Made by a program: the position numbers and the translations under genes | Part shown: positions 3,001-28,128 of the stretch, one piece after another | How positions within the stretch are numbered: the stretch's first letter is position 1 | Layout: every line of letters starts with the position of its first letter | The notes under the pieces: generated by a model | What the model was told of the DNA's origin: nothing | The model's input: the letters and a program-made list of their open reading frames with translations, nothing else | Database searches by the model: none | From: Catajapyx aquilonaris | Taxonomy: Eukaryota | Assembly: GCA_000934665.2 (NCBI GenBank) | Contig: KZ538263.1 | Span: forward strand, 62,001 to 90,128 | Reading direction: 5' to 3' | DNA length: 28,128 nucleotides

Positions 3001-6000
3001 GCGGGCCCAGTGCATTTCAAGTTGCTCCCAACACACCTCTGGAACAGAAAAACATCACAGGAGGCAAAACAACTTGCCTTGGAAATGCCGAGACATTTCC
3101 ACCCACATCTACTTCCCCTGTGACATTTTCTAAGAGTATTCTTTTCATTCCCACCTTCCCATCTTATTCCTAGAGCCAAAATTTAACCACCAAATAGTAG
3201 CCCCATTGCAAGCAGGGCAAGAGTGATTTTCACCCTGCGCTTGCACTATTAATCAATCATATTATTCTCAAGCCAGCAGGGAGACCAAACGGTTACCTCA
3301 CGGACTTTGGTGCATACAATGGAATCTCGGGTGAATCCATAAAATACCACCTGTACCAAACGATGTCCAAACTTTGGTCGAGTCACTTCTTTCTTCATCT
3401 TCTCTCCTAGAATACTGAATTGAACCCCAGTATGAGTAGAATCAAGGGTGTAAAATGAGGAAACAGGATAACCTAAGCTCTTCCATTTCAAAGTATTGTT
3501 TCAGTACAGTGGGTGTAATAATGTTTTGCCATTACAGACTCCTAATATGCTCAGAGCTGTACAAGAGATTATTTAATGCTCATAAGTTTCTGATCCACAG
3601 CCGCATTAATTAAAACTGAATTGTGGCATAATGCAGAAATATTACGCAAAATTGTGCGTTACAAATTTATTTTAGGATGTTATGTCAACAGTTGCACAAC
3701 ACGAAGCCCTCAATAGGTCAAATGCACACTGGTACATGACTTTAATATGCAAAAAAGTTGATCAATTCACCTTCACATGCACTATGTCAGCAATAATAGA
3801 AACACCTTCTAAATGCAAGGTGATGACCTCTCCCCTCTGTAACGGCTCACATTATATGAACACACACACATGCACATCCACACATACTATTTCAAACTTC
3901 TGACCTTCAGTTAAAAGAATCATGTTGATGGCTGATCCAGCAAAGCCTTACTATATTATGAATAAAGAGTGGAATTTTCGTCCCACTGCTATATATATCT
4001 AGTTACTGTTAACTTAGCAGTAACACTGCCAACACTGGTACTGCTAAGTTAGTAGCAACTAGCAGTGGGGCAAAAATTCCGCCCAAAGTAGTTTATAAAT
4101 AGGCTTATTCTTCCACCTTATCACAAAGTTCCTGGTATGCAAGTACTACTTATTCTAGCATCAGTCAAGATAAAAAATTATTATTGTAACAGAGATGGCA
4201 AAAGAGGTATTTTAGAGTGTAAGAATCCCTTTATATGTGATGGCCTAAGATTGATCTCAATAGCAATTTTCTGTTCTTCTCAAGAAATCACAATAATCCA
4301 TAAATGGGACACTAAAAATAAAAATAAAGACCCAAAGCCTATGTAACATCAATGTCTAAGGCACTAGCATCAAGCTGAAAAGACACCCAGAAGCATGACG
4401 CATTGCCTCAAGCCATCTCTATGCACGATTCTAAATACAGTAAAAACCTCGATATAACGCTCCCGCATATAACGATTTCCCATTTTAAACGACCCTTTTT
4501 CCGGTCCCTTGATCATTTCCATAAGGCAAATTTTCCCGCATATAACGCTATTTAGGGCGGTACCTTAATGCGTTATGTTGAGGTTTTACTGTAGTACACA
4601 ATTTCGTAATAAATCATTCAACATGTAAGTCATACCTAACATTACCATAATAATCTTGATTTACTGAAAATAAACGTGACTATCAAATGACACGAAACTG
4701 AAACTGCACGTGATACAAACACAAGGAGAAAGAGCCTTCCTAGACTTTGAATACTCAAACTAGATTAATAGACTTTAACATTTTCCTTTCCCATTAAAGC
4801 TGAAGGTTTAAGACATGTTCACAAGCTCACAAAAATCGTTCATAGCGAGTGTGAGCAGATTCTCGCACCCTGTTCATTCACTGACTTCTTGCCCATCTTC
4901 CTGCCTTTTCTTACAAAATGTCTTGAACTTGCTCAAAAACAATGGTTCTCATGAACTTGTGAACATGCCTGAAGTGTTACGGCGGCAGCAGTACTATTTG
5001 TATGGAAATTATGTACAATCCAACACTCCAGGCACCTATCCTCAACTTAAGCTTGTAACTTCTGAATTGATAGATCATTAGCGATAACCTAAATATTAAA
5101 GAGAGGTTAAAATATAGCGATAACGTGACTACTCCTTCAGTTGGATGAACGGATACAAAAAATGTTCGCACATTCTACAGAAAAGAGCTACAAATATAAG
5201 GCAATAAAGTACACTATATCATGCAAGTAGACAGAAATATAACTATCCTATAGGATGCAGCGTATGTGTTCTGTTGCTGGCAAAATATGCCACTCGCTGG
5301 CACCCCCCTGCCCCCCAATCTTGCCAGACTGGACCATATGTCCACATAAATCCACCCATCAGCCTGCAGTCACACGGAAGCAAGGGGTACCAACCTTGGC
5401 TACCGGCTGCAGCCAGCAGGCCAGGAAGCGAGCCATCTGCAGTCTAGGAGGAAGCAATCAAGTCAAGAAGGCAACAGTCCTGGAGTAACGGAGGGAGAGA
5501 GATCCATGTGACCAGCAGGGGTTGAAAATGAGCATGCGCAATGTTGCCACATCAGGGCAGACCGAAGCTGTTGCGGCGGCTACTGATGGCAGTTACTGCT
5601 GGCTGTTGCGGCGGCTACTGCTGCAGCTACTGCTGGCTGTTGCGGCGGCTACTGCTGCAGCTACTGCTTTCTGTTGCGGCAGCTACTGCTGCAGTTGCTG
5701 CTTTCTGTTGTGGCGGCTACTGCTGCAGCTACTGCTTGCTGTTATTGCTGCTCCATTGGTGGAGGGGAATCCTGAGCCTGATCCTTGACCGGAAATTCCA
5801 TCTCCAGAAGTGAAGATTTACGATGTGGACAATCCCAACCACAGTGCAAGCTCCTGCTCCTCACGCTCTCTCCCTTTCCGTCCGTGTGTCTCTGTGTCAA
5901 CCTTTCTTCCGCTCCTCTGCGCAAGGATGGGGTTCGATACTCTTTCTCCGTGCTAAGGGGGTGGTGGGGTGGTAGGTGACCTCATGCCTCTAGTCTCTCA

Positions 6001-9000
6001 TTGAGACTGGCGTGCAAAAATGACCAGTGCTATTTTCTTAACTCACGCTATGCTTCAGGATACCCTTTTCTGGCAAACCTCAACCCAAAATTCTTCCTGA
6101 CAGACCAGTCCCCCTCCCTTCCTACTCTCTTTATCTTTTGAAAGCTGCATTTTTCCCTCCCAGAAAATAATAAATAAATAAAGCCTACATTGTTGCATCC
6201 TCACGCCTTTTAATGACACAACTCAAGTCAGCCAACCTGTCAAGGAATTGCTCCTTTCAAGGGGCTGACTTGGTTGGGTGTGAAGCTCACACTGTTAGAT
6301 CTACTATTGTCTGGAAAATCTTTACTCCGTAGCAGTCACATGCTAAGATCAGGGATTCTGCAGCCCACTGCCTATTCGAGGGTTACGAGTTTCTTGTACT
6401 GGTACTCTACCAAATTCTCTATCTAGAAGCAGTAATAACGCAGCAGAATCCCTGACAGGTGCACCAGATGCCCTTTGGCCAGGTCATCTAATACTGAATT
6501 AGTTTTCTCGCACCAAGGTGGAGCATATGACCAGTCCTTCATGACTACAAAAGCTGCTTATGTAGCAAAAATTGCAAGAACTTTCATAACCTGGAATTAC
6601 AGTATCAACTATAGGCAGCATTAGCACTTAATTTTATGCATATCAGGTAACTTCAAAAACTAATCAAGTTACTTTCTTCCATGTCAGGAACTTGAAAACT
6701 CGACATCCCTTCCAGGCAATGAAATGTGGTTGCAATTTTCTAAACAGGTCCTGATCACCCATGCATTAAAGATTATTTGCTCTCAACACTTGAAGTAAAT
6801 TGTACTTAGGAAATAAATTTCACCATGTTACGATGGTCTTATCAGAATCATACCTAAAAATGAACACGTCACTAACTGCCAAATTACATTACAGGCCTGG
6901 TTTGGAGAGAACAAAAAATGTACACTGCTGGACATAATAGCAGGATCCTTGTCAATTCGCCTGTATTTTTTTCGGACAATATATTCTCAGCTGATTTGTT
7001 CCACCTAGGCCTGCGTTTTTATCCTCCCTTGAATTCACACGCCTCACAGCAAGGCTAGGCCCGCTCAATGGCTTCAATTACTAAGCTGGAAGCCCTTGCA
7101 TGATCTCAACTGTCATTGACTATCTGCTTGAGATGTTAATAATTTGGACCTTGCAACTTTGTCACACAACACATCCACATCTGGTATATGTCAGAGCTTT
7201 TCACCACGACTTGTAACAACAGATGCTACCGTGGGGGTGCTTGTTTCAAATTTTCCTTTGTCTAAAAAAAAAAACAGGTCCTGGTAAGATCCTTTCTTGT
7301 AAACGTTCCAATGCTATTCATCACTTTAAACTGGAATCATCCTCATGCTACTCACCAAGCTGAAATTTGCATAACTTCAACTGCCACGCTCTTTCCCCCA
7401 TTCACAATAGCTACACCCAGGCCTTACTAGGCCAACATCACATTGGAGAAAACAACTGAAGTACTACACTGCACAGGTTCCTGATAGATTCCTTCCAGTT
7501 GTGATTAATTGCTTATTAAGCCTGGTTGCATTAACCGTACTCTGCCATGCAGTCTGCACGAAAACTACACTCAGTGGACAGAATGCATGTAAATTTGAAG
7601 GTACTCATTAAAACCTGAAAAACCTAAATTCCCTGCACGTGACATTAATCAATTTGCGGAATGTTACACTGCTGTTTCCCCCCCATCTGTATGAGCACTG
7701 AACTATGCAAAATTAAGCCCTATTAACACACCCTCTTATCCTTGCTGCAGTTTAGCACTGCTTTTACTGACATTTCTGCCATCCCAAGGACAAATGCCCT
7801 ATCTACAAAACCAGTAAGGACACTTTCGTCCTTACAGTTACTGGTTTTGTAGATAGGGCGTTTCTCCTTAAATGGCACATTTAGAGCCTTGTCATGGTGC
7901 AAAACCAATTTGTCTACATAAGACTTAAATGTTGCAGTACACAGAATGGTAACAGTGAAAGCCCATCTCTACACTGTTAAGAATGCTACATGGTAGCATC
8001 CCAAATAACAGGCAAGCATCTCCATCCATTTGCAAGAAATATCAAACAGGATGAAAACAAGGCACCAAAAATTGAGGTGTGGAGCTCAGCACCAATATCA
8101 AACAAAATGTAAAAATCAAAATCATGAAAAAATTTAACACCCTCTAAACGAGTCGATCACACTGATTGGACGCCTTAAATACCTTTTCAGCCTCAAGTTG
8201 GTTGAAGACAAATTCCACCACCACGTCATCCTCCATCTGCAGGTGCTCAGTTATCTTCTGTGCTATCCACGGCTTGATGACATCCAGCTTCACCTTGCTC
8301 ATGTCCACCTAGAAAATATGAGCTTGGTAAATAACAATTTGAGAGTAAATCTGACACTCAATAAGGCTCATTTTTAGTTATCACTAATATTGCCCAAAGT
8401 AGTCACTTTTGTGTAGATTGTTGCACCCCGATCCAGGTGTCCAATTACTCCCAGTCAAATATAGCGGTTTCTATGATTTAGGGCACCTGGTTCAGGGTGC
8501 AACAAGCAGAAAAAAGTAACAGCTGTCAGTGAATTTTCCTATACCTAAAAGGATTAATATACTGTTGAATCCTGATATAATACACTTCAAGGGACAGCAA
8601 GGAAAAGTCTGTTATAGCCAAATTGCCTCTGCTTTCCATGTGCTTATAACGCCCACTACTGCACACATTAGTGAAACAATCCACAAAAATGTAAAATTAG
8701 ATCATCCGTAAATTACTCAGGGCCAAAAAAAATCTAATTTTCTTCTGCCTTCCCCTTGTTGCCAAATATACCAGAAAAATTATGATTTTGAGTAGCTTAG
8801 ATCAGCGACATATCTGCCGTCAGATGAAATTGACCATAAATCAAAAACTAGTAAGGGTGAAAGTCGCATGGACGCAAATCCCCTCCGAGTCAGGGGGGAT
8901 TAGTGCAGGGCATGCATGCAACTTTCACCCCTACTAGCTTCTGAGTAAGCCTGCTACACAAATTCGGCAGAAGGCTGAGCGGGCGGAAAACATGCGATTG

Positions 9001-9873
9001 GGGTGCGGAATGTGAGCAGTGGAAATTCACAAATTTGGCGGTGGCGCTGCAGGCGGAATCTGGTGCGATGGGAATCGCTCAAGTCCAACTGTATGGACTT
9101 TGCGGTTCCCACTGCTCAGGTTCCGCACCCCAAACCAGGCCCCCAAACGCACTCTTGCCGCCCACTCAGCCTTCCGCCGAATTTTTTAAGCAGGCTTTAC
9201 GGTCTTCATTCACCTGACAACAGAGATGCGAAATCCCCCCNCCCCCCCCCAGTAATTCTCTGCCGTCCTCTGCATGAGAAAGGTGATACTAAAAAACCGC
9301 ACATTTTCCCACTGAGGACCCAAGAAACAGTCTGTTAAACCCATGGTGAGGTGAAAATCAGCACGTTATATCAGGAATAAAAATACACCGGGCCTTATGG
9401 AAGTAAGCCAGGACAGTGATAATCGAGTCTGTTATATCCAGACTGTACTAATAACACCCTGTATAAAAAGGAATGCTACATCCTAGCCATGCATCAAGTC
9501 CCCTCTTGAGGATGCTTAATTTCCCTTACTTTCTTAGACAGGTTGTCGGCAAACCGCATCTGCTTCAGCAGCTTCTTCTCCTTGTCGCTGAAGCGGTTGT
9601 CCTGCTCCGCCGACGTCCCCTGCAATGCCGAAATCAAATCATCAACACTCATCGAATGGTACAATATGGCATATTTTCCCCCATTTTTTCTTTCTTTTCA
9701 GTCCCAAGCCGGCCTCCCACCCGGCTACAAGATGGTCGTTCCCGGGGTGGGGGGGGCCATGCACCCCTCCTCCCACACACACACTGTATATTCTCTCTCT
9801 TCCCCCTTTTCCCCTCCTCAAAACAGCCAAGCAGCCCCTGCGTTCTCACCCGGAAGAATCCAGCGTCCGTCAT
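1..9873 (-). CDS. SRRM1: Serine/arginine repetitive matrix protein 1 (SRm160), PWI domain plus RS-rich region; 3' end lies outside the window
   Basis: Phase-consistent GT-AG exons: 9873-9850 (MTDAGFFR), 9619-9530 (GTSAEQDNRFSDKEKKLLKQMRFADNLSKK), 8308-8183 (VDMSKVKLDVIKPWIAQKITEHLQMEDDVVVEFVFNQLEAEK, includes PWI), 2979-2809 (TPDPKKMQINLTGFLNGRNARNFMGELWDLLLSAQ...), 2443-2265, 2206-2072, 1535-1410, 830-416 (SRSRSRSRS) and 239-<1. The N-terminus matches the well-known SRm160 PWI domain. Confidence 0.96.
1241..1351. mobile_element. Partial second copy of the 27.3-27.8 kb element, in an SRRM1 intron
   Basis: 42-nt exact inverted match to 27371-27412 and a similar terminus (AGGTAATATGGTA versus AGGTAATACAGTA). 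Confidence 0.6.
3971..4080. mobile_element. Foldback / MITE-like hairpin
   Basis: GGAATTTTCGTCCCACTGCTA...TAGCAGTGGGGCAAAAATTCC, plus inner arms AACTTAGCAGTA and TACTGCTAAGTT. Confidence 0.65.
4438..4591. mobile_element. Tc1/mariner-pogo-type MITE
   Basis: Imperfect TIRs CAGTAAAAACCTCGATATAACGC and GCGTTATGTTGAGGTTTTACTG, flanked by a TA duplication (4436-4437, 4592-4593). Confidence 0.8.
5568..5752. repeat. 34-bp CTG/CAG-rich minisatellite, about 5.5 copies, in SRRM1 intron 3
   Basis: Unit CTGTTGCGGCGGCTACTGCTGCAGCTACTGCT(GG/TT) repeated in tandem. Confidence 0.9.
6349..6455. mobile_element. Small MITE-like element
   Basis: 13-bp perfect inverted repeat TCAGGGATTCTGC and GCAGAATCCCTGA. 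Confidence 0.45.
7796..7859. repeat. Perfect 22-bp inverted repeat (hairpin, MITE remnant)
   Basis: GCCCTATCTACAAAACCAGTAA ... TTACTGGTTTTGTAGATAGGGC. Confidence 0.75.
8418..8505. mobile_element. MITE-like hairpin
   Basis: TTGTTGCACCCCGATCCAGGTGTCC and GGGCACCTGGTTCAGGGTGCAACAA form an imperfect inverted repeat. Confidence 0.6.
8848..8937. mobile_element. MITE-like hairpin
   Basis: CTAGTAAGGGTGAAAGTCGCATG and CATGCAACTTTCACCCCTACTAG form an inverted repeat. Confidence 0.6.
8945..9200. mobile_element. Long foldback MITE
   Basis: Arms AAGCCTGCTACACAAATTCGGCAGAAGGCTGAGCGGGCGG...GGGGTGCGGAATGTGAGCAGTGG pair with CCACTGCTCAGGTTCCGCACCCC...CCGCCCACTCAGCCTTCCGCCGAATTTTTTAAGCAGGCTT. Confidence 0.7.
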
Positions 9874-10478: not shown

Positions 10479-11781
10479 TCAATTCCTGTGCAAGAAGTCC
10501 CTGATGTACGTGTTGACCTCTTGAGGATGATCTTGATGTACCCAATGAGACGCTCCGTGTACAGGTCGAAGGCACCAGTGCTGCACATATTCAGTGGAAT
10601 TGTAGGCCATGGCCGAGGAGAGGTGAATGTCCTTCATTCCCCAGATGATCAATGTCCTCACCTTGACCTGGGGGTCACTTATAGAATCGTACAAGCCACC
10701 TGCTCTGTAGTAGTTAATTGGACCCGTGAAGGCACCTGTCCAGCAGACAAAATTGAGAGTTCACTGACTCATAATCATTACACCACGTGCACATTACCTG
10801 GAGAAGAGTACATGTACCGATAGACTTCGATGTCCTCGGAGCTGATTCGACTCCAGCCCTGACCCGTGAGCCAGAACAGAGCATGGAAGAGTATGTCCCG
10901 AATGCCCCACAAGAATAGTTCTGGAGCCAGAGGAATCTGGAAGAAGGTCATGTAGAAAGACATCAGAGTCTGCCACACGCTCCGTTTGATGAATGTCACG
11001 AAGGCTGACGGATGAGGATAGTTGAGCACGATCAGCTGCTGGACCATCTCAGGGTGTCGAATGGCCATTGACCAAGCCAGGACACCACCCCAGTCGTGAC
11101 CAGCCAAGATGCACTGATCCCTGCCTGTACAACAATGCAACAGATTGTGCTCAACGTGAAATGTACGACACAGGGAACAATATCAGCAATAACATGTACT
11201 TACCCAAGTGAAGTATTAAGTGATGAATGTCGTCCAGAACAATGTCAAGCCTGTATTTTCCTGCTCCTGAAGGTTTTTCAGAGTCGCCAAAACCTCGGAG
11301 GTCGACTGCCACCACCCTGACAATACCAGAATTGGTCTGATTCGGTATGAAACACCTTATATGATATTGAGACTTTACCAGTATTTGTCGCTGAGGTCCA
11401 GAATCTGATGCCTCCAAGAGTACCAAAATTCGGGGAATCCATGGAGAAGCAGCAGAAGAGGCCTGTCTCTATTGCCCTTCTCTACGTAATGCAGCTTCAC
11501 ATCCTGAAACACAGAACAGTCAGTACCTATACAACGAGTGAGATGACCACCCTGACCTTAAGTTTGGTGTACGAGTGTTGACCCCAACGTGGGTTGTCCA
11601 GCGTCTCCGGACGTTTGTCTTGCTGTGGGAATCCAACAAACCTTCCAAGGATATTCCTGATGATGGCCCAGGTCACCACCAATGGGGTCAGGAACAAGAT
11701 GACCCCACAAATCGGAACAACCAGAACCCAATGCACCAGCAGTGGTGCCAGTTCCGTTCTGGTATGGCCCATTGCACTCAT
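10479..11781 (-). CDS. EPHX4: Epoxide hydrolase 3/4-like alpha/beta hydrolase with N-terminal membrane anchor
   Basis: Exons 11781-11557, 11503-11379, 11316-11204, 11124-10798 and 10735-10479, all in phase. Motifs: hydrophobic N-terminus, HGFPEFWYSWRHQ (oxyanion HGxP), DLRGFGDS, GHDWGG (nucleophile Asp), PINYYRA (lid Tyr), WGMKD (acid) and ASHWVHQD (His). EPHX3 versus EPHX4 orthology cannot be resolved by eye. Confidence 0.9.
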
Positions 11782-15746: not shown

Positions 15747-16693
15747 CTCTCCTTGCAGAAGCGATACTTTTCCCTTTCCGCAGAGGGTATATTTCTGGGC
15801 GTCAACAAGAAGCCGGCTGTACATAAAGTGAATTGCAGCTGCGTTCGTGATTTCAGTACAGGCACGACAAAAGAAACGAAATGTTGAGTGTCAACTACAG
15901 GCATGCCAAAGTTTTATGAACGTCATTAACTCACGCCATTGCCGACGGGAGAAAATACATTTAGAGACGGCTAATGTGTCCAGCACTGTACAGAATAGGA
16001 AATGGATAAATAAAGAACGTTTGTAAATATATGCAAACATTTTTTTTCCTTATAAACAACTCTGTTACAAACTACAAGTCACACTTTCTACATATTGTCC
16101 AGTGTAAAACACAGGGCAACAGCCACACAATCAGTCATCGCGTACGGATCATCGCAGTCATTTGCATTGATTACAGAAATGTAATTCGTCAGCCTTCTAA
16201 TAAGAAGGCATAGGCCCACCAAAACTGCACTGTAATATTAGCATGATCATGTAATACGCAAATGTAGCACAGCACTACAACTCGGTTAATACGCTTCACC
16301 AGTTTCTCAGTTGAAATTAAGTCAAAATAACTTGTGCGTATAAGTTACGCAATAATTTAGGTGTTCAGGTCTGATAATAAGTAAGAAATACCATATACTA
16401 TGACAAAATTTACAATGTAATGGAAATACTTCCGCTTATGACTTAGATTCATTTAGAAAGAAGGTTATCACTGCTGTCCTTGGCCCGTTCTATGAATCCC
16501 AACTCTTAATGATGTGCGACTCTATTTACAAAACCTGGATTTTCTGAGCCGTAATGTGCACTCTTGTGATGAAAAATACGGAGCACTCCAACTGAAGATA
16601 GTTTGCCATTTGTATGCTCTAAGCTGCTTAAGTCTTGTGCATTTCTAACCTAATAAAACAAATAGTTACTCAATGTATAACAACTTGCATTAA

Positions 16694-16966
16694 AGGGCCA
16701 CTGTCCCAATAATCGGACCGAATTTTATCGCAATTTAAAGTGCATTTTAAAATCATAACACGACCTTGCATCATATGGGAATGAAAGTGTCATATTTTTC
16801 TCATGATCCAAAAGGAAGATATGAGTTTTACAAGTCCGAAATAGGCTGGAGGTCATGTGACCAAGGGTGTCCTCGTGAGTACACATAATTTTTTTGGGAT
16901 ACTATGGACCAAGCGGACACATTCCATGCATTTTGTCAAATTTTTTAACTTGGAGACAAGTGCCCT
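16694..16966. mobile_element. Kolobok-like non-autonomous element downstream of the TAK1 stop
   Basis: TTAA|AGGGCCACTGTCCCA ... TGGAGACAAGTGCCCT|TGAA: imperfect TIRs starting with AGGG and a TTAA-type target site, with the right copy degenerate. Confidence 0.5.
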
Positions 16967-17851
16967 TGAATCAAACTCCCACAATTACAATGTATAGCTA
17001 CCAATCTCGGGATAAACGCTTTCGAAACAGAACAAAGAAGATGCGAATAACATGTTTTAAAATGTGATGCAACGGTTTAAACCTGAAACATAGTCGAAAA
17101 ATAAAATCAAATGTATTTTAAAACTTTGGTGAGCTTAAAGTTGCAATCAAATTTTTTATATGCATCAGTTGCGTGATAAAATTGATCTTAACTGTAATTC
17201 ACACAAATAAAGTGGATAACATCATCTAGCAGTCTTAGCTTAACCCAGTCTTCCAGCAACAGCAGTTTAGTTAGGCCCATTAGTTGCATAGTCAACAACG
17301 AATAACAATAAAAAATCAGATCACAACATGATCATAAAACTCATATGCCGTGTGAATAGCCTAGGGCCACAATGTCAAAGGGAAGAGCATTGCTCTTCAG
17401 CGCAATAGATTCACATGTGAATAACGGCACACAAATAATGCAATGGCCCACAAATAAATTTCGGCAGGGTGACTTCAGCATAAGGATACCTTCAACGCTA
17501 ACCAAAATATGACATGATTTCCAGTCTTTCGCAGACGACCTCTGTATCCCCCCCAGCAATATTTGTTGCACTGGTAAGCAGTAACACAGTGTAAACAAGC
17601 TGCGGTTTCCTATTTGGGTATGCACATCTCACTGGGAAGTAACTTGTCTCCATGAGCTTGCACATGTCCACTCACACTGGGATAGGCAAGTCTTTTCCTT
17701 ATTCGTGGAATATTTTGTCCAGTGCCAGCGATTTAAAAACCTCCTTATTCGTCTTTAAAAAAATAAGTCCATCAGGACACACGTGAATTTTAACTTACAG
17801 GAATAAACTTAACAAAAGCCAGCCAGTCAGCTGTTCGCATCAGCGCAAGTC

Positions 17852-20800
17852 TCACGATCTTTGCACCATAACCCAACCTCCGTCACCATCCCCACCTCCT
17901 CCGCCACTCCGTTCCCCTCCAGGCCCAGCACCTCCTCCATTCCCTCCTCCCCCTCCTTGCCCTGACGGTGGACTCCCCTGACCTCCTCGTTGCCGCTTCT
18001 GCTGGGCCGACTTTATGATTTCCAGTTGGCGCTTCAGGTTGCGATGAAGGTGCACCAGGCTCTCCTGAAATTAAGAAGCAATCTGTAGTCTTCCAATCTC
18101 TTAACATCATCCGCACATTACCTTCTCGCTCTGGAGTTGGCGCAACTCTGACTTGTACCGTTGGGAATCTTGCTCCTCCAGCTGGCTCAGGCCTTCCGCT
18201 TCACTCAGCTGCTCGGCCAACTCATGCTTGTACTTTGTTAGCAGTGCAAGCTCAGTCTGGACCTTCAGGTACTCTTGAGCCATCTGAAATAAAGCAGAAT
18301 AACAATCATACGCAACCTAATTTTAAAAAAAAAGTTCAGGCAGGGATGCCCCCGATACCACTTTTTACCGATTCCAATATTGGTTATTTGATTCCAATAC
18401 TGCTCCCACCACGGCTTCCGACAAGGCTTGAGGAGCCCACCTCCCAAAAAAATATCCCGGTGGCAAGCAAGCAACAAAATCTTTAAATATCCCGACTCAC
18501 ATGTGCCGCACATGTGTCATGCCCACCCCCAAAAAATGACTCACCCGCTTGTGTTCCTCAAAGATCCGCATGGACTCTTCGCAATTAATAGAAGGCGAGA
18601 TGGGATGCAACTGCGGATCCAGCATCAGGTACGCATTTTCGATCAAGTCTTGCGTGTTGGCGTCAGGACCTTGAGAGAAGACAAATCATGTTCTATATTA
18701 GTTAACTGACCCGACCCACTTTTTTTTTTTTTGGTTTGAAAAACATTTTTAAAAAAAGTTACAGCACAACACTCTTGGCGCCTGATCCCTGCCATTCGTC
18801 GCAAAAACAAACTGGTAGGAAACTCTGTGCCAACTCAGCTTAAATTGGCAACCACAACTCACGGGGAATCCCTAACATCCTGGGTCAGTCCCTGACTGTA
18901 CCGTAGCTATTGGTCAAGATTCGGTGAGAAAAAAGTTGATCCTGCACGTCACGCAGCTAGTGCTACAAGTGTGCAGTTGCATAACGTTCAGGATGCTAAT
19001 TCCAACTGCCTCAAAATAAATACTGCAAATAAGTCATGTAGATAATATTTTATTTTTGGTTGCATGGTACTCACAATATTAACGCCAAGGTCAACTATTA
19101 CATACATTAATTCAAGACAAGTTTCAGCACTCTCAGTAGTCTGAAAGTGGGTTAGGTAGCCGTGACATATTTACAAACTTTCCTATCGTACATATATAAA
19201 GCGGAATGTTTGTTGGTATGTACCCATGTCACGGCTACCTAACCCACTTCCGGAGTACTGGCATTGCTGAAACTTGGCACACCGACGTCTTACGTGCATC
19301 TGATTCCGGGAAAAGGCCGAAAACCGCACTTTTTTTAAAGTCTAAATGCCCAAAATTTTGGATTTTGTTTGTTAAAAAAAAATTGTGGCACATATTTCTT
19401 AATTATTCATCAATCACTGTGTGAAGACCCCTGCTAGTTCATACTATAAGAGATTAATGAAAATCACATCATAAGACACGACACTGACTGAGCCAAACGG
19501 TCAACTACTCATGTCCCGTCTCCGAGCCGTGACCCAACCTTGTCCCGTCTCCCGAGTCGTGACACATGTCCCGTCTCCAAGCCGTGACCAAAACTTGTCC
19601 CGTCTCCCGAGTCGTGACACGTGTCCCGTCTCCGAGCCGTGACCCGTGACCCAAACTTGTTCCGTCTCCCCAGTCGTGAAACATGTCCCGTCTCCGAGCC
19701 GTGACCACAGCTTGTCCCGTCTCCGGTCTCCCCAAGCCGGGACATATTAAACGCGTGTAGCCTCCTTCTCTTTGAATGCACTGTGTAGAAAGAGCAAGTC
19801 GTTGACTTCCCCGGCAGGTAGCCTGGCCCTGTTGTTGGTGACGACGCTTCCTCCGACGCTGAACAGTCGTGACGATGGTACGCTGGTGGCGGTGACGCAC
19901 AGGTACTTCCTGGCTATCCTGGCCACGTTCGGGTACTTGGTCTCGTTCATCTTCCACCACCTCATGGGGTCCAGCTCCGTCTTGTTCTCCTGGCGGTACC
20001 TGGCCGCCTCGTGCGTCTCGTGCGCCTCGTCGTCGTCCTCACTGTCGCTGTCGTCCAACAGCCACTTCCTCTTCTTCTTATTATTGTCCTCAGCAGCTCG
20101 TGGTTCGCTCCCTTTGGCGATCCGCAACACCTCGTCGTACAGCTGGCTCCAGACCTTGTTCCGCTCCGGCTGGGTCAGGAACTTCAAGGCTTTGAACCTG
20201 GTGTCCATTGCGGAACACTTGCGGTACAGCTCCATCCGCTGCATGCTGCTCGCAATGGCGTCAACCACCTTCCGCTTCAGGTCTCGCACGCACTCGTGGT
20301 CCCCCTTGTCCACCAGGGTTTTGGTCAGCTTGTGGAATATGGTGAGGACCACCGATCCGCTGATGTAGCTCTCATCCCCGAGGCAGGTCATGGCCTCTGC
20401 TAACGGCTCCAGGGCAGACACGATGGCCTCCATCTGTGCCTGGTCAGTCTCATCCAATCGGAGGTCGCTTGAAGCCTCCTCCAGCGTGGCATTGACCGCT
20501 TTTGAGTGAACACACAGGGATTGAAGCATGGTACGGGTCGAGTGCCACTGCTGCGGAACATCCTTCTGCAGCTTGGTACTTGCCAGTCCGTACCTCTGCT
20601 GGCTCCTCTCAAGCGCCTGTTGGTTCTTAGTCAACTGCGCCACAATCAACCGCCCCTTCTTCAGAGTGTCCGCGACCGTTTCGTCCATCGCCGCGCACAC
20701 GCTGTCACGTATGATATGCCCCGCGCACGGTACGGCCTCGTTATCAATCGGACTGGACGTTACGTACGCAACGACCTTCCCAGCCAATCCCCACCGCTCC

Positions 20801-23800
20801 TCCAGTGCGCTCAAGCACGCTCCAAGGCGCTCTTCCACCTCCACCGCGCCCAGCAACCGCGACTGCAGCGACCAATCAGCGTCCACGAAATGTCCGCTCG
20901 CGCTCACAAACCGCTCGCCGGTAACGGACACCCACATGTCGACAGTAACGCACACGTGCTGCACAGTCGACATATCATAATGCAATATCTGTCTTTCCTC
21001 ATCAGCCAGCGACGTCAGCAGCCATGACACCGTCGCACTTGACGGCGGTTGGTATCTCGGTACCGCAACTCTCAGCATACTCACAAACCCCCGACCTTCA
21101 ACGATACTAATCGGCTGCAAATCGCGGGCTACGAACTTTGCAATCTCATGCGTAATGTCCATCGCGTGTTTGGTGTTGACCTGCTGCGTCTTCTGCTGCG
21201 TTGTTGCTGCTGCAGAGTGACACGGCACCAGCGCCGGGCATCTCGCAATATGCACATTCAAATTGGTGGTATTGCCGCAGTACGTCACGCGTTTACCGCA
21301 ACTGCGACACCACACGGCTGTCCTGTCCGATGGGGTGCCATCCTCCTTGACCTCGAACCCAAAGTGTTTCCACACATCGCTCCTCAGGTTGGACGGTGTC
21401 ACCAGCTTCCTCTCCATCGCGACAAGGAAACAACAAACACGCCGTACAGCAAGCTCCGACCACACTGAAGTTTTCCCCGGTATTAAAGAGAATATTTCAA
21501 GCTCCGGACAAATCGATGCGTAGTTCTATCGATTATCGAAAACCAGTCCAGGATTGGATAATCGATGTATCGTATGCAGCTGGAGTGAGGCCATGAGAGG
21601 AACCCACAGGAGGGGAGGACACAGTACGGTCGATCAGAAACGGATAATCACCTGCTCTGCAACGCTTCTAGCAATCCATATGCTTAAAACTGGGACACTA
21701 CCGCCCTACACATAGAACTGGCTAGGCGTGACTCTGTCCCTACACATGAGCTGACTCATCACCTAGGTGCATGTAGTTATCACTTTCCCAGTAGAGGAAC
21801 GGTGTCTGGAAATCTACTTACAAACTGACAAGGTTTTCCCACTGGAATGACTAAACGATACAAACTCATGTGAGGTGGCCATTGCGCCTCGGTTAGCAAC
21901 AGGTTCACTCTCTATAGCAGCTATACCAGTGTGGAGCGGCATTCACTAGTCATCGTCATCATCATCATCACCATCACGACATTTCCATATAATGGGTAGT
22001 CCGCGATGACGGAAGCCACAAGCATTCACCCATTCACTAGTAAACTTACTAAACAGCAACCAACAGCAGTGCAACGTCCCGCAAACCAATGGCAGCCTGC
22101 ACTTGCTAGGGTCACACTCAGTGGTCACCTTCTTGGCCGCCACCACTGGACGTTGACCGCCTTCCTCGCTCCCCATTCTAACAGCACTAAAAATCCTCAC
22201 CGCCTTGAACACCTCTCAACGACTGAGCAAAGAGATGCTTTGGTCCAAACTCTTCTTCTTTCCCCCCCACCTCATCTCCCCTCCCATGCAGCCTCCCTGT
22301 CCCCAAACAAACTCGGTAATTTTGGACGCCAGGGGGCATGAGTCACTAGAGTTTCTTTGCAGACGCCCCGCAGACTAAAAATGGGAGGAGGTGATGCTGA
22401 TGCTGCCTCATCCCTAGGAGATGCCCCAAAGCACGGCCAGGGCCAACACTCTCCTATAAAGCTCCACATTGCTCTCAACGGCCTCACGTAAATGAGTCTG
22501 CTTAAATACTGTAAATAAACATAATTACATTTACATTTCTTCACAGCATTAGTTCCCAGAGAACGGTAGCCAGTGGTGTCCCGGTATTACCTGACCACCT
22601 CGTTAAGACCGACATAATGACACCTCCATTACAAATAAATATATTACAGATAATACATAACACAAAATAAAATAAATTATCATTAGATTCATGGGGGTGC
22701 ACCTCCCTGTGCAGATGCAATCCGGAAGAAAGGTGAACGTCCTAGGTGAGTCATCTTGTACCCCAAAAACAGATCAGGTGGATTGGCGGAGAAGGGGCTC
22801 GTGGCCAGCAGAAGAGACGCCATCCTCACTGTCGCGTGTAATCAAAGCTCGCGTTTCAACATGGGGAGTTTTTTTATTCTTGCAGATCCTCCACAGTGAT
22901 GAGTCAAAGAAGAATTTTTAGAGTGGTCTAGGTCACAGTGTTCGGTGGGAAAAGTGGCTTTAAATGAGAGTCTGACTCAGCGTCGCACACTGTTTACACA
23001 CAGGCTTATACTCTGGGTGAAGACAAATTCAACTTATTCTCTACATATGCTAGAGAGAGAAAAAAATTGCAATTGAAATCACGCTCGAAATATTTCTGGC
23101 ACTTTTTTTGGGGTAACTAACGTAATGCCCTTCTCTGCGGGGTATCATCATGTGATATACGTTCTTGGCGCACCGATGCGCACTAATGCTGTGGGTCATG
23201 GGAGCAGTCCAGAACCAACTGGGTGAGTCACCACGATATGTATGTTGGCAAGCCGGTTCAGTGACACAGAAATGGCCTCTATATAATGCAAGTCAACATA
23301 CTGCGCCTTCAAGTGTTACATCAATCAGGAGAACCAAGCAGAAGTAAATAAGAGCACTGAAATTCAATGGCTCAAAAAAAATATGACATTGGATGCCCAC
23401 GTATATCCTCTTCGGATTCCACTCTTCTTTCGGGTGATGAGGTGAAGCGTTATGCCAAAAACCTTGCATGTCCCTCAATACCCCTCACTCATATATGAGT
23501 GGTACTGCCCAACTTTCTGCGGCAGTCCAAAACAGTGGCGCAAGAGTCCTGTTTGACAGGCACCTGGCTAAAGATAAGCCAGGGACCAGGCAACAGGCCA
23601 GACCGTGGTGTCTCCCTAGTCCTTCTGACTCAGCCTCTTCAGCCATCGCCCTTACACCTAATCTAGCTTCCTTTTTTTTCCCTTCACTCTTTTGTAGGAA
23701 CAGCAAGGTAAAAATGAAGCAATCCCTATAGTAACTCATGACTAATTAAGCCGCCAAATTCTGCCAATGGTATATAATTGTCCTGTGTCTGTGGCGTCAG

Positions 23801-24736
23801 CTCAAGTATTAACACGAAGTAGTGTATTGACTTTGGAACACGCTGCTTTATTCAACGGTCACATGACAGTAGCGAGAAAAATGTGAAGGTTGAGTGTTCC
23901 TGAATAGAAAGGTTTCATTCATTAGAGTGAGGCTAAAATGTATCACGCAGACCCGGAAGTCAAAAAAAAATTTCCTCTGTTCCATGTACGAAGTATGAAC
24001 ACATCGATGAAATTGACCTGGTTGCAATTCCTGAATGATTAATAATACAACAACAACAACATCACGACATTTCCCTATGAGGGGTAGTCAGCGATGAAGG
24101 GAGATGCAAGCTAACCCAACATATGAACTAATAAAACTCATGAGAAAGAACCTAAAAACATCCTGTCCCACCCCCCACCCCTGCCCACCTCAGACATCAC
24201 CTTATCCTCAGACATATTTACCTATTTACCCATTAATTAACCTACGCCATTTACACCTATCCAAACAAACAACCCTAGCCTCAGCCACGTCCATGGTCCT
24301 ATTGACACAAGAACGTCTCGGCTTAACACTAGCAACACCCTTAAGACACTGACCCACCAATAATAACCGCAATTAAAAAGGTCCTACCCTATTCAACGTA
24401 AATTGGCAGAAACCATCTTGCACACTGAATAATTGGTGAGCATAGTGTGTACTACTATACATCAAACAATGTTTTCAAACTGATGGGCTTGAATAAATCA
24501 TGCAAGAATACATGCAAAACAATCATTCCTACCTGTCGAGGACAGATCTGACATTGAGGGATGGTCATAACTTCGGCCTAGATCCTTCAAATTGTAGAGT
24601 GACTGAGAAGAAGCAGCTCCAACCCAGCTAAGCGTCGATGCTTCCAGTGCCGGTGTGTCGTTTTCTCTACCAAGGTGACCGTGACATATGGCAGCCATGT
24701 CTGCCGGTGAACCGTACGAGACTGTTCTTCGGTGTC
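17852..24736 (-). CDS. MAP3K7: TGF-beta-activated kinase 1 (TAK1), C-terminal exons including the TAB2/3-binding coiled coil; kinase exons not seen and presumably right of the window
   Basis: Exons 24736-24533 (GHRRTVSYG..., compare vertebrate GHRKTASFG), 18669-18545 (AYLMLDPQLHPISPSINCEESMRIFEEHKR), 18283-18122 (MAQEYLKVQTELALL...) and 18064-17852 (LKRQLEIIKSAQQKRQ...GWVMVQRS*). Phases are consistent and the sequence matches the TAK1 C-terminus AYLTLDHQLQP...MAQEYMKVQTEIALL...QLEVIRSQQQKRQ. Confidence 0.9.
19180..19438 (+). mobile_element. Non-autonomous Helitron-like fragment
   Basis: Starts near TC...TATATAAAGCGGAATGTTTGTTGGTATGT, contains CTGAAACTTGGCACAC and ends CTAG|T at 19434-19438. 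This layout resembles arthropod Lep1/DINE-like Helitrons, recognised by eye only. Confidence 0.5.
19510..19744. repeat. Tandem array: about 8 copies of TGTCCCGTCTCC(C)GAG(C/T)CGTGAC in alternating ~29/26-bp units (about 55-bp dimer x4)
   Basis: Read directly from the sequence; it begins immediately after the ZBED-like stop codon. Confidence 0.9.
19747..21417 (-). CDS. ZBED1/DREF-like BED zinc finger, hAT transposase-derived protein (556 aa from ATG), nested in a TAK1 intron
   Basis: Uninterrupted GC-rich ORF. It contains a BED finger (SDVWKHF..CRSC..GNTTNLNVHIARC), DLQPISIVEGRGF, TVDMW, CAGH (CxxH), QWHST, AMDTRFK, a KKKRK NLS-like stretch and the hATC dimerisation domain (WWKMNETKYPNVARIARKYLCVTATSVPSSRLFS). 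Confidence 0.92.
   Translation of the reverse strand: MERKLVTPSNLRSDVWKHFGFEVKEDGTPSDRTAVWCRSCGKRVTYCGNTTNLNVHIARCPALVPCHSAAATTQQKTQQVNTKHAMDITHEIAKFVARDLQPISIVEGRGFVSMLRVAVPRYQPPSSATVSWLLTSLADEERQILHYDMSTVQHVCVTVDMWVSVTGERFVSASGHFVDADWSLQSRLLGAVEVEERLGACLSALEERWGLAGKVVAYVTSSPIDNEAVPCAGHIIRDSVCAAMDETVADTLKKGRLIVAQLTKNQQALERSQQRYGLASTKLQKDVPQQWHSTRTMLQSLCVHSKAVNATLEEASSDLRLDETDQAQMEAIVSALEPLAEAMTCLGDESYISGSVVLTIFHKLTKTLVDKGDHECVRDLKRKVVDAIASSMQRMELYRKCSAMDTRFKALKFLTQPERNKVWSQLYDEVLRIAKGSEPRAAEDNNKKKRKWLLDDSDSEDDDEAHETHEAARYRQENKTELDPMRWWKMNETKYPNVARIARKYLCVTATSVPSSRLFSVGGSVVTNNRARLPAGEVNDLLFLHSAFKEKEATRV
21752..23632. promoter_or_regulatory. Cluster of seven AP-1 consensus (TGASTCA) sites in the TAK1 intron
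   Basis: Exact TGACTCA/TGAGTCA at 21752, 22339, 22747, 22900, 22973, 23224 and 23626. Confidence 0.5.
21950..22330 (-). mobile_element. Retroposon fragment sharing its 3' tail with the RTE copy at 24.1 kb
   Basis: 21972-22023 (CATCACGACATTTCCATATAATGGGTAGTCCGCGATGA...) resembles 24060-24111 and has a (TGA)n tail. The 5' boundary is uncertain. Confidence 0.5.
24048..24400 (-). mobile_element. 3' fragment of an RTE-clade non-LTR retrotransposon
   Basis: Minus strand reads ...VKPRRSCVNRTMDVAEARVVCLDRCKWRRLING* (stop 24228-24226), similar to the RTE C-terminus RRACMKRLMDVxEAxxVCxDRxxW. It is followed by a short 3' UTR and a (TTG)n tail. Confidence 0.7.
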
Positions 24737-27301
24737 CTGAAACAACATTGCAAAATTCTCTGAACCTCGGAACAATCCACATGCTCAGAATATTTTTAAA
24801 AGCTTACCAAGGCCAACACACAAACTGAACCTATGCCATGGTTCGAAAATAATTGAATGTGAGAATTGAGTTCACCACAGGCATTTTGGTCAGATAACAT
24901 TTGGAACGACACACAATTTATGTGTGCGGCCAATCAACACTTTACTAACTCAATGGAAATGAACAAATTCCATGCAAAAAACACAATAAAATACTGCCCA
25001 TACAACCTAAATAAGGCAAATATTATCCATTGTGGACAGTATTTTTGGTCCTCGCACCAGATTTTCAATGTATTTCTGTCATGTACAGTATAATAATTTA
25101 AACCTACTCAGGAAGGGAATTTTTTTAAATGGAACAGAACAATTCGACTATTCACAGGTTTCAGTACATTACACAATAACTGATTTTTTCCGCTCCGAGT
25201 ATTATGTCAGAAACACTTAGTGATGCTTAGTCACCATGTTGAAGCTGTATTGGTAAATGGGTGTGTGATGCAACTCGTTGCATAATTTTGCTTGGAACAA
25301 AGTTTCCCATGGACTGACATTAATTATTCTTAAAAATCTACATGCACTCATGCTTAATTTAAGTCCGAAGAAACTTATTACTTTTTGTTCTTTATTCCGC
25401 ACATTAGCATACTCCCAAGTAAACACGTCCAGGGCAAAAACTCGTAGGGAAGGTATTCAGGCAGGTGAATCCATTCTTAGAAAGAAAAAAAAGGCAGCTC
25501 CAGTGCGACACCCCTTTGCTTCAATTTATGATGTTGCCGAGAATGAAGAAAACACGGCTCTTGTGCATGGTGAATCATGCCACAGGGATGCTACAAGAAT
25601 CCAACTTGGCTGGCTTTCTCTATCTTTGCACAGATTAGGTAGAGGCTCGTTACTGGCAGTCCACGTCTTATGCCGCCTGTGCCAACTCTCCACTGTTGGG
25701 TCAAGCCATGACTGCACTTGTGCTTCCGAAAGTCTGAGGTGCCAAATGCTATTTGTGCATCAGCTTTTTCTGGTACTGCTTCCTACTCAACAATTCTGGT
25801 CATTTTCCTTTCTGGCAGCGGTATCGCTCAAAAAAGTGGAAACACAGTGCATGTTTCAGAAGAGGGTAGCAACCTGCCGTATTAATCGTTCTTCTACAGA
25901 TTTGTAACCTACGTATGAAATCATGCAACTGAAAAGTCAATTGCGATGGAAAAGGCAAATTTTCACGACATGTATAGCGTAGTTATAAAGCACACTTACA
26001 ATTTAATAGAGCCCACTTTCCTGCCGCAACAAAAGAATTACTTTCAAAATGTGACGGTCTGGACGACAATTATAGAAGTGCATGAAAACTCATCTCTCCC
26101 AATACAAATCTGTTGGACATGCCTATATTTGCACATTCACCTTACTGATGAGTCAACGAATGACTATTATAATATTTCCTTCACACTCACAAAGGTCGGC
26201 AAAGTTGAATAGTGAGTAGGTAAAGGACCGCACAGAACTGAATGCAGCAGGCAGTCATATTTTGTCATGTGGCAATGAAGACCTGCCAAGAATTCAAAAT
26301 ATGTCAAAGCCAAGATTCCTTCATTGACACGGTACTATTACAGGCATCACTAATGTTTTCCTTTGAGAACCCAACACTACTGTACCAAATTATGTGGACA
26401 TAGATGAACACAGGCTCTTTCTAAAACGCTCTTAATATATTGTGCGATGTCATGTTTTTTCCTCACTTTATGCCAAGCAAAAATAATTCTAAGCATATGA
26501 ATTGCGAATGTTAATTTGTGATCGTAATCAAGAGGCATTTCACTAATCCTTTTATAGCATTTTCTTCTTGCTGATTCAGCTGCAATTCAATTTTAGAGGT
26601 GACAATCTTCACATGTACCGGTACATGCTTATGAATGGCGTGGATTCACGTTTACATTGTGCTGGATTTTATACATTAGGATTGGAACAGACCTGCTAGA
26701 TTTTAACAAGAATATATTGAGCACTTATTGGCTTTCCTAGCACAATGTATGCAGCCTTTTTTTTTTTTACATATCCACAAATATCCAGCAAGCAATATAA
26801 CTTACAGTATACTCTAGTATTTGCAACATATTTTGAAATTGAGAAAAAGGTAAGTGTCAATGCCTATTTTAAGAGCTTATTTAGGACTTTCTGTAGCCTT
26901 TTTTGGAATTCATAGGACCTGAAACATCAGGGATAGAGTCATAACATATTAACATTTTCGAATAGAGCAGCTTCCATTATTTTCCAAAAATCACACAAAG
27001 TGAATTTCAGTTCAAAGCTACATTGTTATTCAAGAACATTATTAGTGGCGACCGATCTTACTTGATTACGTTCGAATAAATGGCAATCCTTCAATTTCGA
27101 AAACTAAATCAGTCAATAATACTAATCACACTACATAATCACTACAGGGTGGGTTGTCATGTGTCTAGTCAATGATTACACTAGCAGGTGGAAGGCCCAT
27201 TCGTAAGAAACACCCTGTGTAATTAAACACAATTAATACAGAATTACCTCCAAAGGGTCTAGGGCCTATTGGCAGGGTCAACCCTTCAAGGCCCTATCTA
27301 A

Positions 27302-27782
27302 GTATTATCTCGAACATAAAGCGGCATGCCGGTGTAGTCAAGGTTGACCAGAGTTTAGACAGTCATCATCTGGTGGCTATACCGGCATGCTGGTCTAAGT
27401 GAGGTATGCCGGCATGAGTCGAGGTTTTCACTACATTTGCCTTTCATAACTTGCTATTTAATTCCTGAAAGAAAAATCCATGAAAAGGCTCATTTTCCTA
27501 ATCTAATATCGTATGCAGTATGTTCTTTTCTCTGCACTGTTCAACAGAATTTGCATATTCTCCCACCACAGTACACTTGCCCATTTTTCACTGTAACATT
27601 ACTTGAGTAGGGTACTAGAAGCATTTCATTGAAAAATGACAAGGATCAAAATTAAGGACACGTACCTCTGTTATTGCGGCATGCCGGTCACCCCTGGGTT
27701 ATACCGGCATGCTGGTCGACCTCATTTTATACAGGCATTTATACCATTTCATACCGGCCGCTTTATGTGAGGTAATACAGTA
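27302..27782. mobile_element. TIR element (MITE-like) with internal CCGGCATGC repeats
   Basis: Ends GTATTATCTCGAACATAAAGCGGC and GCCGCTTTATGTGAGGTAATAC are an imperfect inverted pair. 27371-27412 is the exact reverse complement of 1258-1299. Confidence 0.6.
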
Positions 27783-28035
27783 CAACATATAATTTATTAA
27801 CATATAATTAACATAAGCAATCAAATACGGACAGCCTTCTGCTCTTGGCCATAATTAAAAGTGTCTGCACTGCATGACAAAAATACATTGAAAATCCTCT
27901 GCTGGGATCAAACCAATATTATGCATAATTACACAAGTTTACCTGGAATCCTGAGTTCACTGCACTCACACATTTCAGAACTTAGCCCATACTGTAGCCA
28001 TACAAATCTTACGAACACTCATTTGCCACACTTAA

Positions 28036-28128
28036 GGGCGCACGGTCACGACGATTTTTCCCACTCGCGGAGGGCAAGTTTGGCCGAGGGACGGGTGCTG
28101 CGTTGTGTTCGCACCGCCGGCGTAGCCG
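28036..28128. mobile_element. Probable start of a GC-rich TTAA-flanked DNA transposon, truncated by the window edge
   Basis: Abrupt switch to CpG-rich sequence immediately after TTAA (28032-28035), beginning GGGCGCACGG. The other end is not visible. Confidence 0.3.

Follow-up and report, generated by a model that had tools for sequence, protein, structure and literature searches.

Does an intact reading frame of transposon origin, lying inside an intron of a cellular gene, belong to a mobile element or to its host? This question is raised by a stretch of 28,128 nucleotides from Catajapyx aquilonaris (GCA_000934665.2, contig KZ538263.1, positions 62,001 to 90,128 of the forward strand; hereafter the window), in which an earlier note, made from the letters alone, had seen a catalytically dead hAT transposase nested in a TAK1 intron and had proposed it as a candidate domesticated ZBED gene. 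We hold it to be an evenly balanced proposition that the product of this frame, named P0001 here, is a selected, non-catalytic DNA-binding protein, either a ZBED-like regulator or a binder and repressor of hAT ends.

An uninterrupted hAT-derived reading frame

The open reading frame (ORF) and its conserved parts are located as follows:

19747-21417, minus strand: hAT-transposase-derived ORF encoding P0001, with its stop codon; 556 codons, uninterrupted (ORF list, Pfam, PDB phmmer and structural model)
21238-21381, minus strand: BED zinc finger, residues 13-60 (Pfam zf-BED, E = 5.4e-6; ZBED1 BED structure 2ct5)
20716-20955, minus strand: RNase-H-like core, strands 1-5 and CxxH, residues 155-234 (alignments and model)
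20539-20550, minus strand: Q290-W291-H292-S293, which replaces the family motif R-W-N-S, H292 being encoded by CAC (family alignments)
19780-19989, minus strand: hATC dimerisation region, residues 477-546, which includes S516 (Pfam Dimer_Tnp_hAT, E = 2.2e-18)

The frame encodes 556 amino acids and has zero internal stops, in agreement with the earlier note. Among all PDB chains, P0001 matched the Hermes transposase (phmmer, E = 6.5e-24) as well as the BED domain of human ZBED1, 2ct5 (E = 2.1e-7), and the CCHC ligands of the BED finger (C37, C40, H56 and C60) are present. The match to the Hermes DNA-binding domain was below threshold in Pfam. A model obtained by AlphaFold2 from a 50-sequence alignment had a mean predicted local distance difference test (pLDDT) score of 88.8 and a predicted template modelling (pTM) score of 0.79, the pLDDT being below 50 only at residues 67-74 and 442-459. 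When this model was compared with the PDB using Foldseek, the ten best matches were all Hermes chains, with E values from 1e-18 to 6e-16 and TM scores of about 0.6-0.7. By its BED finger, its hATC region and an RNase-H-like core interrupted by an all-alpha insertion, P0001 belongs to the hAT superfamily by descent. The BED finger, the CxxH, the Trp and the hATC domain, all read from the letters as retained, were thus recovered by Pfam, by phmmer against the PDB and in the family alignments.

Loss of the catalytic triad

P0001 was aligned with Hermes, of which we take D180, D248 and E572 to be the catalytic residues, and with its own family. The family alignment comprised 157 proteins of 520-720 amino acids out of 211, those dropped being outside this length range, a near-duplicate (P0153) or a hydrolase (P0211). 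Together, the alignments gave P0001 the triad D160-S221-S516, not D-D-E. The equivalent of D180, D160 (codon GAC, 20940-20938), is kept. D248 corresponds to S221 (codon TCC, 20757-20755), VTDN having become VTSS; in the family alignments, the nearest relative with D-D-E has the same context, KVVAYVT, at this residue. E572 corresponds to S516 (codon TCA, 19872-19870). Each of the two serine codons is at least two base changes away from the codons of Asp and Glu. The triad columns are conserved among the 156 relatives at 96% (D), 87% (D) and 89% (E), and a complete D-D-E is present in 124 of the 157 aligned hAT proteins. The replacement of Glu by Ser that had been read from the letters was thus found through the Hermes alignment in exactly the same codon, with the predicted minimum of two changes, and the readings VTSS for VTDN and QWHS for RWNS held in the family alignments; the Hermes alignment proposed as a check for the loss of DDE, taken with the family alignments, left the first Asp in place and gave Ser for the second Asp and for Glu.

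The CxxH (C231, H234) and W291 are kept. In the model, strand 4 (residues 215-220) is connected to strand 5 (residues 228-230) by a loop of 7 residues, and the segment that leads from strand 4 to the CxxH strand is 9-10 residues shorter in P0001 than in its three nearest relatives. As the Glu is lost, catalysis by P0001 is very unlikely.

Relatives of P0001

A HMMER search of 1.84 billion representative proteins, a collection in which P0001 itself is absent, gave 15031 matches at E <= 0.001. A word search of 5.8 billion clusters gave 2 matches only, the best of them at 34% identity by BLASTP, and a scan of metagenomes gave 11 loci, with a best segment of 37% identity. One of these loci (L003) was considered as a close relative and rejected as a frameshifted, DDE-bearing hAT. 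In an Atlas feature search, ZBED1-like clusters were named first.

In a FastTree phylogeny of the 157 proteins, P0001 and the scorpion protein P0004 were sisters with a support of 0.988, on a common stem of 0.26 and with terminal branches of 0.87 and 0.88 substitutions per site. P0004 is annotated as 'E3 SUMO-protein ligase ZBED1-like' of Centruroides vittatus (XP_067135790.1 and XP_023212204.1 being P0004 and P0153); the C. sculpturatus and C. vittatus proteins are identical at 560 of 579 positions without gaps, and each is recorded on one contig in its species. The scorpion sister has an intact frame, the triad D-E-D and the motif W-H-S, so that the N-to-H change in W-N-S is common to both sisters. 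P0002 and an aphid 'Transposase', in both of which D-D-E is complete, join this pair with a support of 0.987, and P0159 is grouped with P0001, P0004 and P0002 in the tree (supports 0.988 and 0.987). When P0004 was used as the query, 55 proteins were found at E <= 1e-20, the best beyond its own cluster being P0002 (35%) and the aphid 'Transposase' (34%), and nothing closer was found in any other animal.

Triads are also altered in other ZBED1-type genes of the alignment, such as P0144 of the paddlefish (D-E-D with W-H-S) and P0150 of Halyomorpha, which has isoforms (E-S-S). These two proteins lie 3.5 and 3.7 substitutions per site from P0001, compared to 1.75 for the scorpion sister; the states that they share with P0001 are therefore convergent and the proteins are not orthologues. 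By the tree, P0001 is likewise not an orthologue of ZBED1/DREF or of ZBED6.

Maintenance of the reading frame

In a substitution-only simulation, the probability that no new stop codon arises was 0.53, 0.30, 0.06 and 0.003 at 1%, 2%, 5% and 10% neutral divergence, respectively, and the probability that two given codons are each changed at two or more sites was 5e-5 at 5% and 0.011 at 20% divergence. The indel term of this simulation rests on assumed rates and was left unused. P0001 shows 11 private deletion runs in the alignment (32 columns, 6 runs of at least 2 residues), necessarily all in frame, and zero private insertions; the three nearest relatives show 3, 2 and 1 private deletion runs, the scorpion sister being the one with 3. 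As neutral decay of an active copy cannot give the sequence of P0001, the frame would have been protected by selection during the loss of catalysis.

Between P0001 and its scorpion sister, the BED finger is the best-conserved part (56% identity) and the N-terminal part of the RNase-H core is 33% identical; the corresponding values for the DDE-intact pair P0002 and P0159 are 46% and 48%.

Copy number and search for transposon ends

The contigs covering the stretch come from four DNA-type runs and one further run. Copy number was assessed in three of the DNA runs, all from one sample, in which contigs at least 90% alike would have appeared. P0001 lies on a single contig of 2548 bp (19231-21778) with depths of 27.2, 16.9 and 35.7 in the three runs, the adjacent unique contigs having depths of 31.8-34.7, 18.1-21.7 and 33.5-36.8, respectively. 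Between 19436 and 21298, no second contig at least 90% alike was found and the bin depth is exactly that of the ORF contig. At 90% likeness or above there is therefore one copy of P0001, and the many near-identical copies that would have marked a young defective element, according to the earlier note, were not seen in these runs. A lone variant within the ORF, 21235 C>T in run X1, is synonymous (CCG to CCA) and carries little weight.

The single-copy contig is limited on both sides by repeats:

19118-19276, no strand assigned: palindromic repeat resembling a miniature inverted-repeat transposable element (MITE), high copy, with 61-nt arms 84% complementary, starting with CAAGTTTCAGCA; it limits the contig 3' of the ORF
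21713-21900, no strand assigned: segment of moderate repetition, its summed depth pointing to roughly tens of copies; it limits the contig 5' of the ORF

Unique DNA has depths of about 20-35, compared to a summed depth of about 1200-2200 in the bin of the MITE-like repeat; position 19118 is the end point of 56 contigs. The bin 21299-21919 has depths of 364, 235 and 380, compared to about 17-36 beside it, with joints and contig ends at 21713-21897.

No pair of terminal inverted repeats (TIR) with an 8-bp target-site duplication (TSD) was found above chance around the ORF by a repeat search and two scripts, the second of which gave 2 weak hits, where 20 shuffles gave 0-6; their absence, noted earlier by eye, is thus upheld. 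In a self-BLAST of the window, the two flanks of the ORF showed no mutual similarity. Two candidate pairs of ends were rejected. The inverted pair 19350-19371 and 22304-22325 (22 nt, 82% complementary) is AT-rich, lacks a TSD and is one of 99 pairs, and the pair 19197 and 21708 (TIR 7/12, TSD 6/8) is at chance level, its left end lying inside the MITE-like repeat. A contig joint leading from 19158 to 21752, with a shorter side of 23 letters, was found in all four runs and skips the 2593 bases that hold the ORF. It was rejected as an empty-site allele for three reasons: its depth is that of a complete single copy, the depth of the ORF contig is not halved, and the joint has repeats on both sides. 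It probably comes from a different locus at which two repeats meet.

The host intron

The ORF lies in the following intron:

18671-24532, minus strand: host intron of 5862 nt, which holds the ORF in the same orientation (splice signals and in-frame junction)

The exon 24737-24533 is preceded by the acceptor ...tttcag/G and followed by the donor ACAG/gtagga, the next exon (18670-18545) begins after ...ctctcaag/, and the junction between the two is in frame (...LSSTG PDANTQD...). On these splice signals and the in-frame junction, the 5862-nt intron is real. The downstream host exons presumably encode the C-terminus of TAK1/MAP3K7, by likeness to the human protein. One Atlas lead was obtained for the host exons, MAP3K7CL, with a weak score of 0.78; no match to the PDB was found for the host exons and no relevant Pfam match for 4 exon peptides. 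By this likeness and the weak Atlas lead, the host gene is probably TAK1/MAP3K7. The co-oriented intronic nesting described from the letters is thus established by splice signals and frame, the name TAK1 standing as a lead only, and a role of P0001 in the 'immune/stress' biology of TAK1 is pure speculation. A literature search brought up no report of a hAT gene lying within MAP3K7.

As read from the sequence, the 160 nt 5' of the P0001 start codon contain no ATG, and a pyrimidine-rich CAG is present near 21581. No contig of the further run, X5 (from a second study), covers the ORF, which was counted as evidence neither way.

In the same run, a 1656-bp contig with a depth of 22.5 covers 16126-17780, the putative 3' untranslated region of the kinase gene; elsewhere X5 has depths of 2-5 in scattered short pieces, a pattern that looks like RNA. 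A very high-copy repeat lies at 24047-24358, just downstream (minus strand) of the host exon ending at 24533, and in the DNA runs the summed depth of the bin 23783-24403 amounts to about 41,000-66,000, indicative of thousands of copies.

Motif array, CpG content and other points against a host function

Three further features lie in or around the ORF:

19510-19724, minus strand: tandem array of 3.8 units of 55 bp, containing 8 copies of GAGACGGGACA and starting 23 bp after the stop codon
21727-21740, minus strand: additional GGGACA-N-TCACG, matching the array in strand and located some 310 bp upstream of the start codon
19500-21700, no strand assigned: GC-rich block undepleted in CpG by the observed/expected ratio (CpG o/e), extending over the ORF, the array and some 280 bp of upstream sequence

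The 8 copies of GAGACGGGACA in the array compare to 0.27 expected, and none of 100 shuffles reached 8. GGGACA-N-TCACG has 4 matches in the window, 3 of them within the array, compared to 0.02 expected. The array looks like a surviving hAT subterminal repeat region, and the copy at 21727-21740 is possibly a remnant of the other transposon end. Hermes BED domains bind short subterminal repeats, according to PMC10368747. The GAGACGGGACA copies are candidate sites that the BED finger of P0001 might bind.

The hexamer GGCTCG, given as the ZBED6 motif in 10.1101/540914, also occurs inside the array units and was taken as a coincidence. RNA gene scans gave no Rfam match and no tRNA gene.

The observations that weigh against a host function of P0001 are of several kinds, the first being that this well-kept, subterminal-repeat-like array adjoins the stop codon, as in a transposon not yet decayed. 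The second is that CpG o/e is 1.00 in the ORF and 1.01 in 19231-21778, compared to 0.53 in the pooled host exons (1284 nt), about 0.6 in the remaining intron and 0.63 in the whole window. Within the ORF, the ratio is 0.96 at codon positions 1-2, 0.89 at positions 2-3 and 1.08 from position 3 to the next codon, the latter two being the mainly synonymous phases, and the GC content at third codon positions (GC3) is 0.74, compared to 0.60 in the host exons. Unless germline methylation is absent, CpGs at synonymous sites should be lost from a sequence that has long resided in a CpG-depleted gene body; the block is thus either a recent arrival or germline-unmethylated.

Thirdly, the full DDE is absent in 33 of the 157 aligned hAT-like database proteins, with at least two substitutions in 10 of them, so that a broken triad in an open frame is not rare. 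P0001 moreover departs from the family at 16 of the 62 columns that are at least 80% conserved (among the 157 proteins, the median is 5, the quartiles are 3 and 9 and the maximum is 26). These departures include non-catalytic columns, for example DPR to DTR, and P0004 departs likewise; the loosening is therefore general and not confined to the active site. Finally, the nearest proteins among the 1.84 billion representatives, P0004 and P0002, are only 38% and 37% identical to P0001, and no orthologue or syntenic copy was present among the searched proteins. The copy count is limited to 90% likeness or above, below which older paralogues are possible, and its evidence comes from one sample, possibly the source of the window's own assembly.

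Other features of the window

Downstream of the kinase gene, at 10479-11557 (minus strand), lie exons of an alpha/beta-hydrolase (epoxide-hydrolase-like); the one hydrolase exon searched gave 1 bacterial-type match at 39% identity, to a protein with Pfam abhydrolase families. The ORF list also contains a PWI-like exon at 8183-8293 (minus strand) and an Arg/Ser-rich frame at 308-853 (minus strand), which may suggest an SRRM1-like splicing-factor gene. A tandem repeat of about 35 bp, with copies 88-91% identical and Leu/Ala/Cys-rich frames, is found at 5567-5743. The segments 1243-1299 and 27371-27427 form a 57-bp inverted pair, 93% identical and 26 kb apart, and the bins at 26888-28128 are likewise high copy. 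At least one N is present around 9100-9300, where two of the listed frames contain an X.

Weighing of the explanations

The explanation that we favour, at even probability as stated above, is that P0001 is an inactive protein derived from a hAT transposase and has been kept intact by selection for a function that needs no cleavage. Its most likely function would be sequence-specific DNA binding through the CCHC BED finger, with the retained insertion and hATC domains allowing dimers or oligomers to form and no cleavage to follow. Expression could start from the CpG-rich block itself, or arise from the host pre-mRNA by intron retention as for ZBED6. Mechanistically, P0001 could equally well act as a dominant-negative factor that binds the ends of other, related hAT elements. 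Site recognition, oligomerisation and expression are in this way proposed from domain content and position. According to PMC10368747, domesticated hAT proteins rarely retain enzymatic activity but retain DNA binding.

P0001 shows the traits of a domesticated gene, namely a single copy (at 90% likeness or above), lost transposon ends and an intact ORF; it has neither the D-D-E triad, nor TIRs with an 8-bp TSD, nor several similar copies (at 90% likeness or above), as an autonomous hAT element would. A young transposon is expected to have ends and genomic relatives, whereas an old host gene is expected to have lost its CpGs unless it is unmethylated. The conflict over CpG is easier to resolve than that over the missing ends and copies, and the argument from frame maintenance is valid under either history; domestication is favoured for these two reasons. 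P0001 is therefore a plausible but unproven candidate for a lineage-specific ZBED-like gene. Of the lineage-specific domesticated DNA-binding factor that the earlier note proposed, the dead hAT derivation, the single copy, the lack of ends and the maintained frame stand, whereas the undepleted CpG and the retained array speak against it.

A possible, though clearly less probable, explanation is that P0001 is a recently arrived single-copy hAT relic without host function, derived from a lineage that was already inactive and was mobilised in trans or captured by repair, its frame being open for want of time. This would account for CpGs undepleted even at synonymous phases and a GC3 unlike that of the host exons, for the preserved array of 8 motifs beside the stop codon with one more copy upstream, for a block bounded by repeats and for the lack of any relative closer than 38% identity, and at 1-2% divergence an open frame survives substitutions with a probability of 0.53-0.30. 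However, the TIRs and 8-bp TSD expected of such a relic are not above chance, and no second copy at least 90% alike is present in the DNA contigs. The in-frame deletions and two-step codon changes would, moreover, still need long selection on a non-catalytic protein, which the ordinary life cycle of a transposon does not supply.

It is improbable, but worth stating, that P0001 and the scorpion protein represent an unrecognised family of inactive hAT-derived BED proteins selected in distant animals, the copy described here standing beside its own array of sites and being expressed from the TAK1 pre-mRNA. If true, such a family would represent a self-recognising DNA-binding module tied to a stress-kinase locus, or a repressor of hAT mobility retained by the host.

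Slightly less likely again is that P0001 and the scorpion protein both belong, by vertical descent, to an old inactive family, which would then be an ancient domestication lost in most animals and not a lineage-specific event. The sister support of 0.988 on a common stem of 0.26 substitutions per site, the shared derived W-H-S and S265N, the common N-terminus M-x-R-K-L-V-T-P and the alteration of the same two catalytic positions in both proteins are consistent with such a family, but the two are only 38% identical, their replacements differ (S/S vs E/D), the P0004 query gave no closer relative in any other animal, and the distribution is patchy, as that of transposons is. It is highly improbable that P0001 is a working transposase with an unconventional site, in which for example D225 of the S-S-P-I-D-N loop replaces the lost Asp: D160, W291 and the CxxH are kept, the fold is confidently predicted and an I-D-N tripeptide lies four residues past the lost Asp, but the Glu has become Ser with no acidic substitute nearby in the alignments, the core is short by 9-10 residues beside the second catalytic position, the protein is single copy without TIRs or TSD, and 124 of the 157 family members keep D-D-E.

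Comparison with known systems

The nesting of the ORF in a host intron repeats the arrangement of ZBED6 in ZC3H11A. If P0001 is truly exapted, it would be an invertebrate-type example of a ZBED gene with a transposon-style array of sites still attached, and it could illustrate the passage from transposase to regulator. It opens no long-standing question, domesticated hAT genes and 'ZBED1-like' predictions being already common.

In architecture, P0001 resembles Hermes, the hAT transposase of Musca domestica (PDB 8EDG, 4D1Q, 6DWW and 2BW3), including the DNA-binding helices and the all-alpha insertion that splits the RNase-H core. The first Asp, the CxxH and the Trp of Hermes are kept in P0001, which differs in having Ser at the second Asp and at the Glu, QWHS and a shortened link after strand 4, and in being single copy with no TIRs or TSD found.

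According to PMC2780926, ZBED6 lacks introns, is single copy, lies in intron 1 of ZC3H11A and is co-expressed with that gene by intron retention. The ORF of P0001 is similarly intronless, single copy and hAT-derived; it encodes BED and hATC domains and shares the orientation of the unrelated host gene whose intron holds it. ZBED6, by contrast, is longer than 900 codons and carries two BED domains. It is one conserved locus in placental mammals that is expressed and binds DNA, and it is not orthologous to P0001.

With the ZBED1/DREF-type proteins, P0001 shares a BED finger and an altered triad, and P0150 (E-S-S) has Ser at the same two positions. The closest likeness in the tree is that of the Centruroides ZBED1-like protein, an intact protein of 579 amino acids which has in common with P0001 the N-terminus, KVVAYV, W-H-S and the same two altered catalytic positions; it differs in that its replacements are conservative (D to E and E to D) and its core is not shortened.

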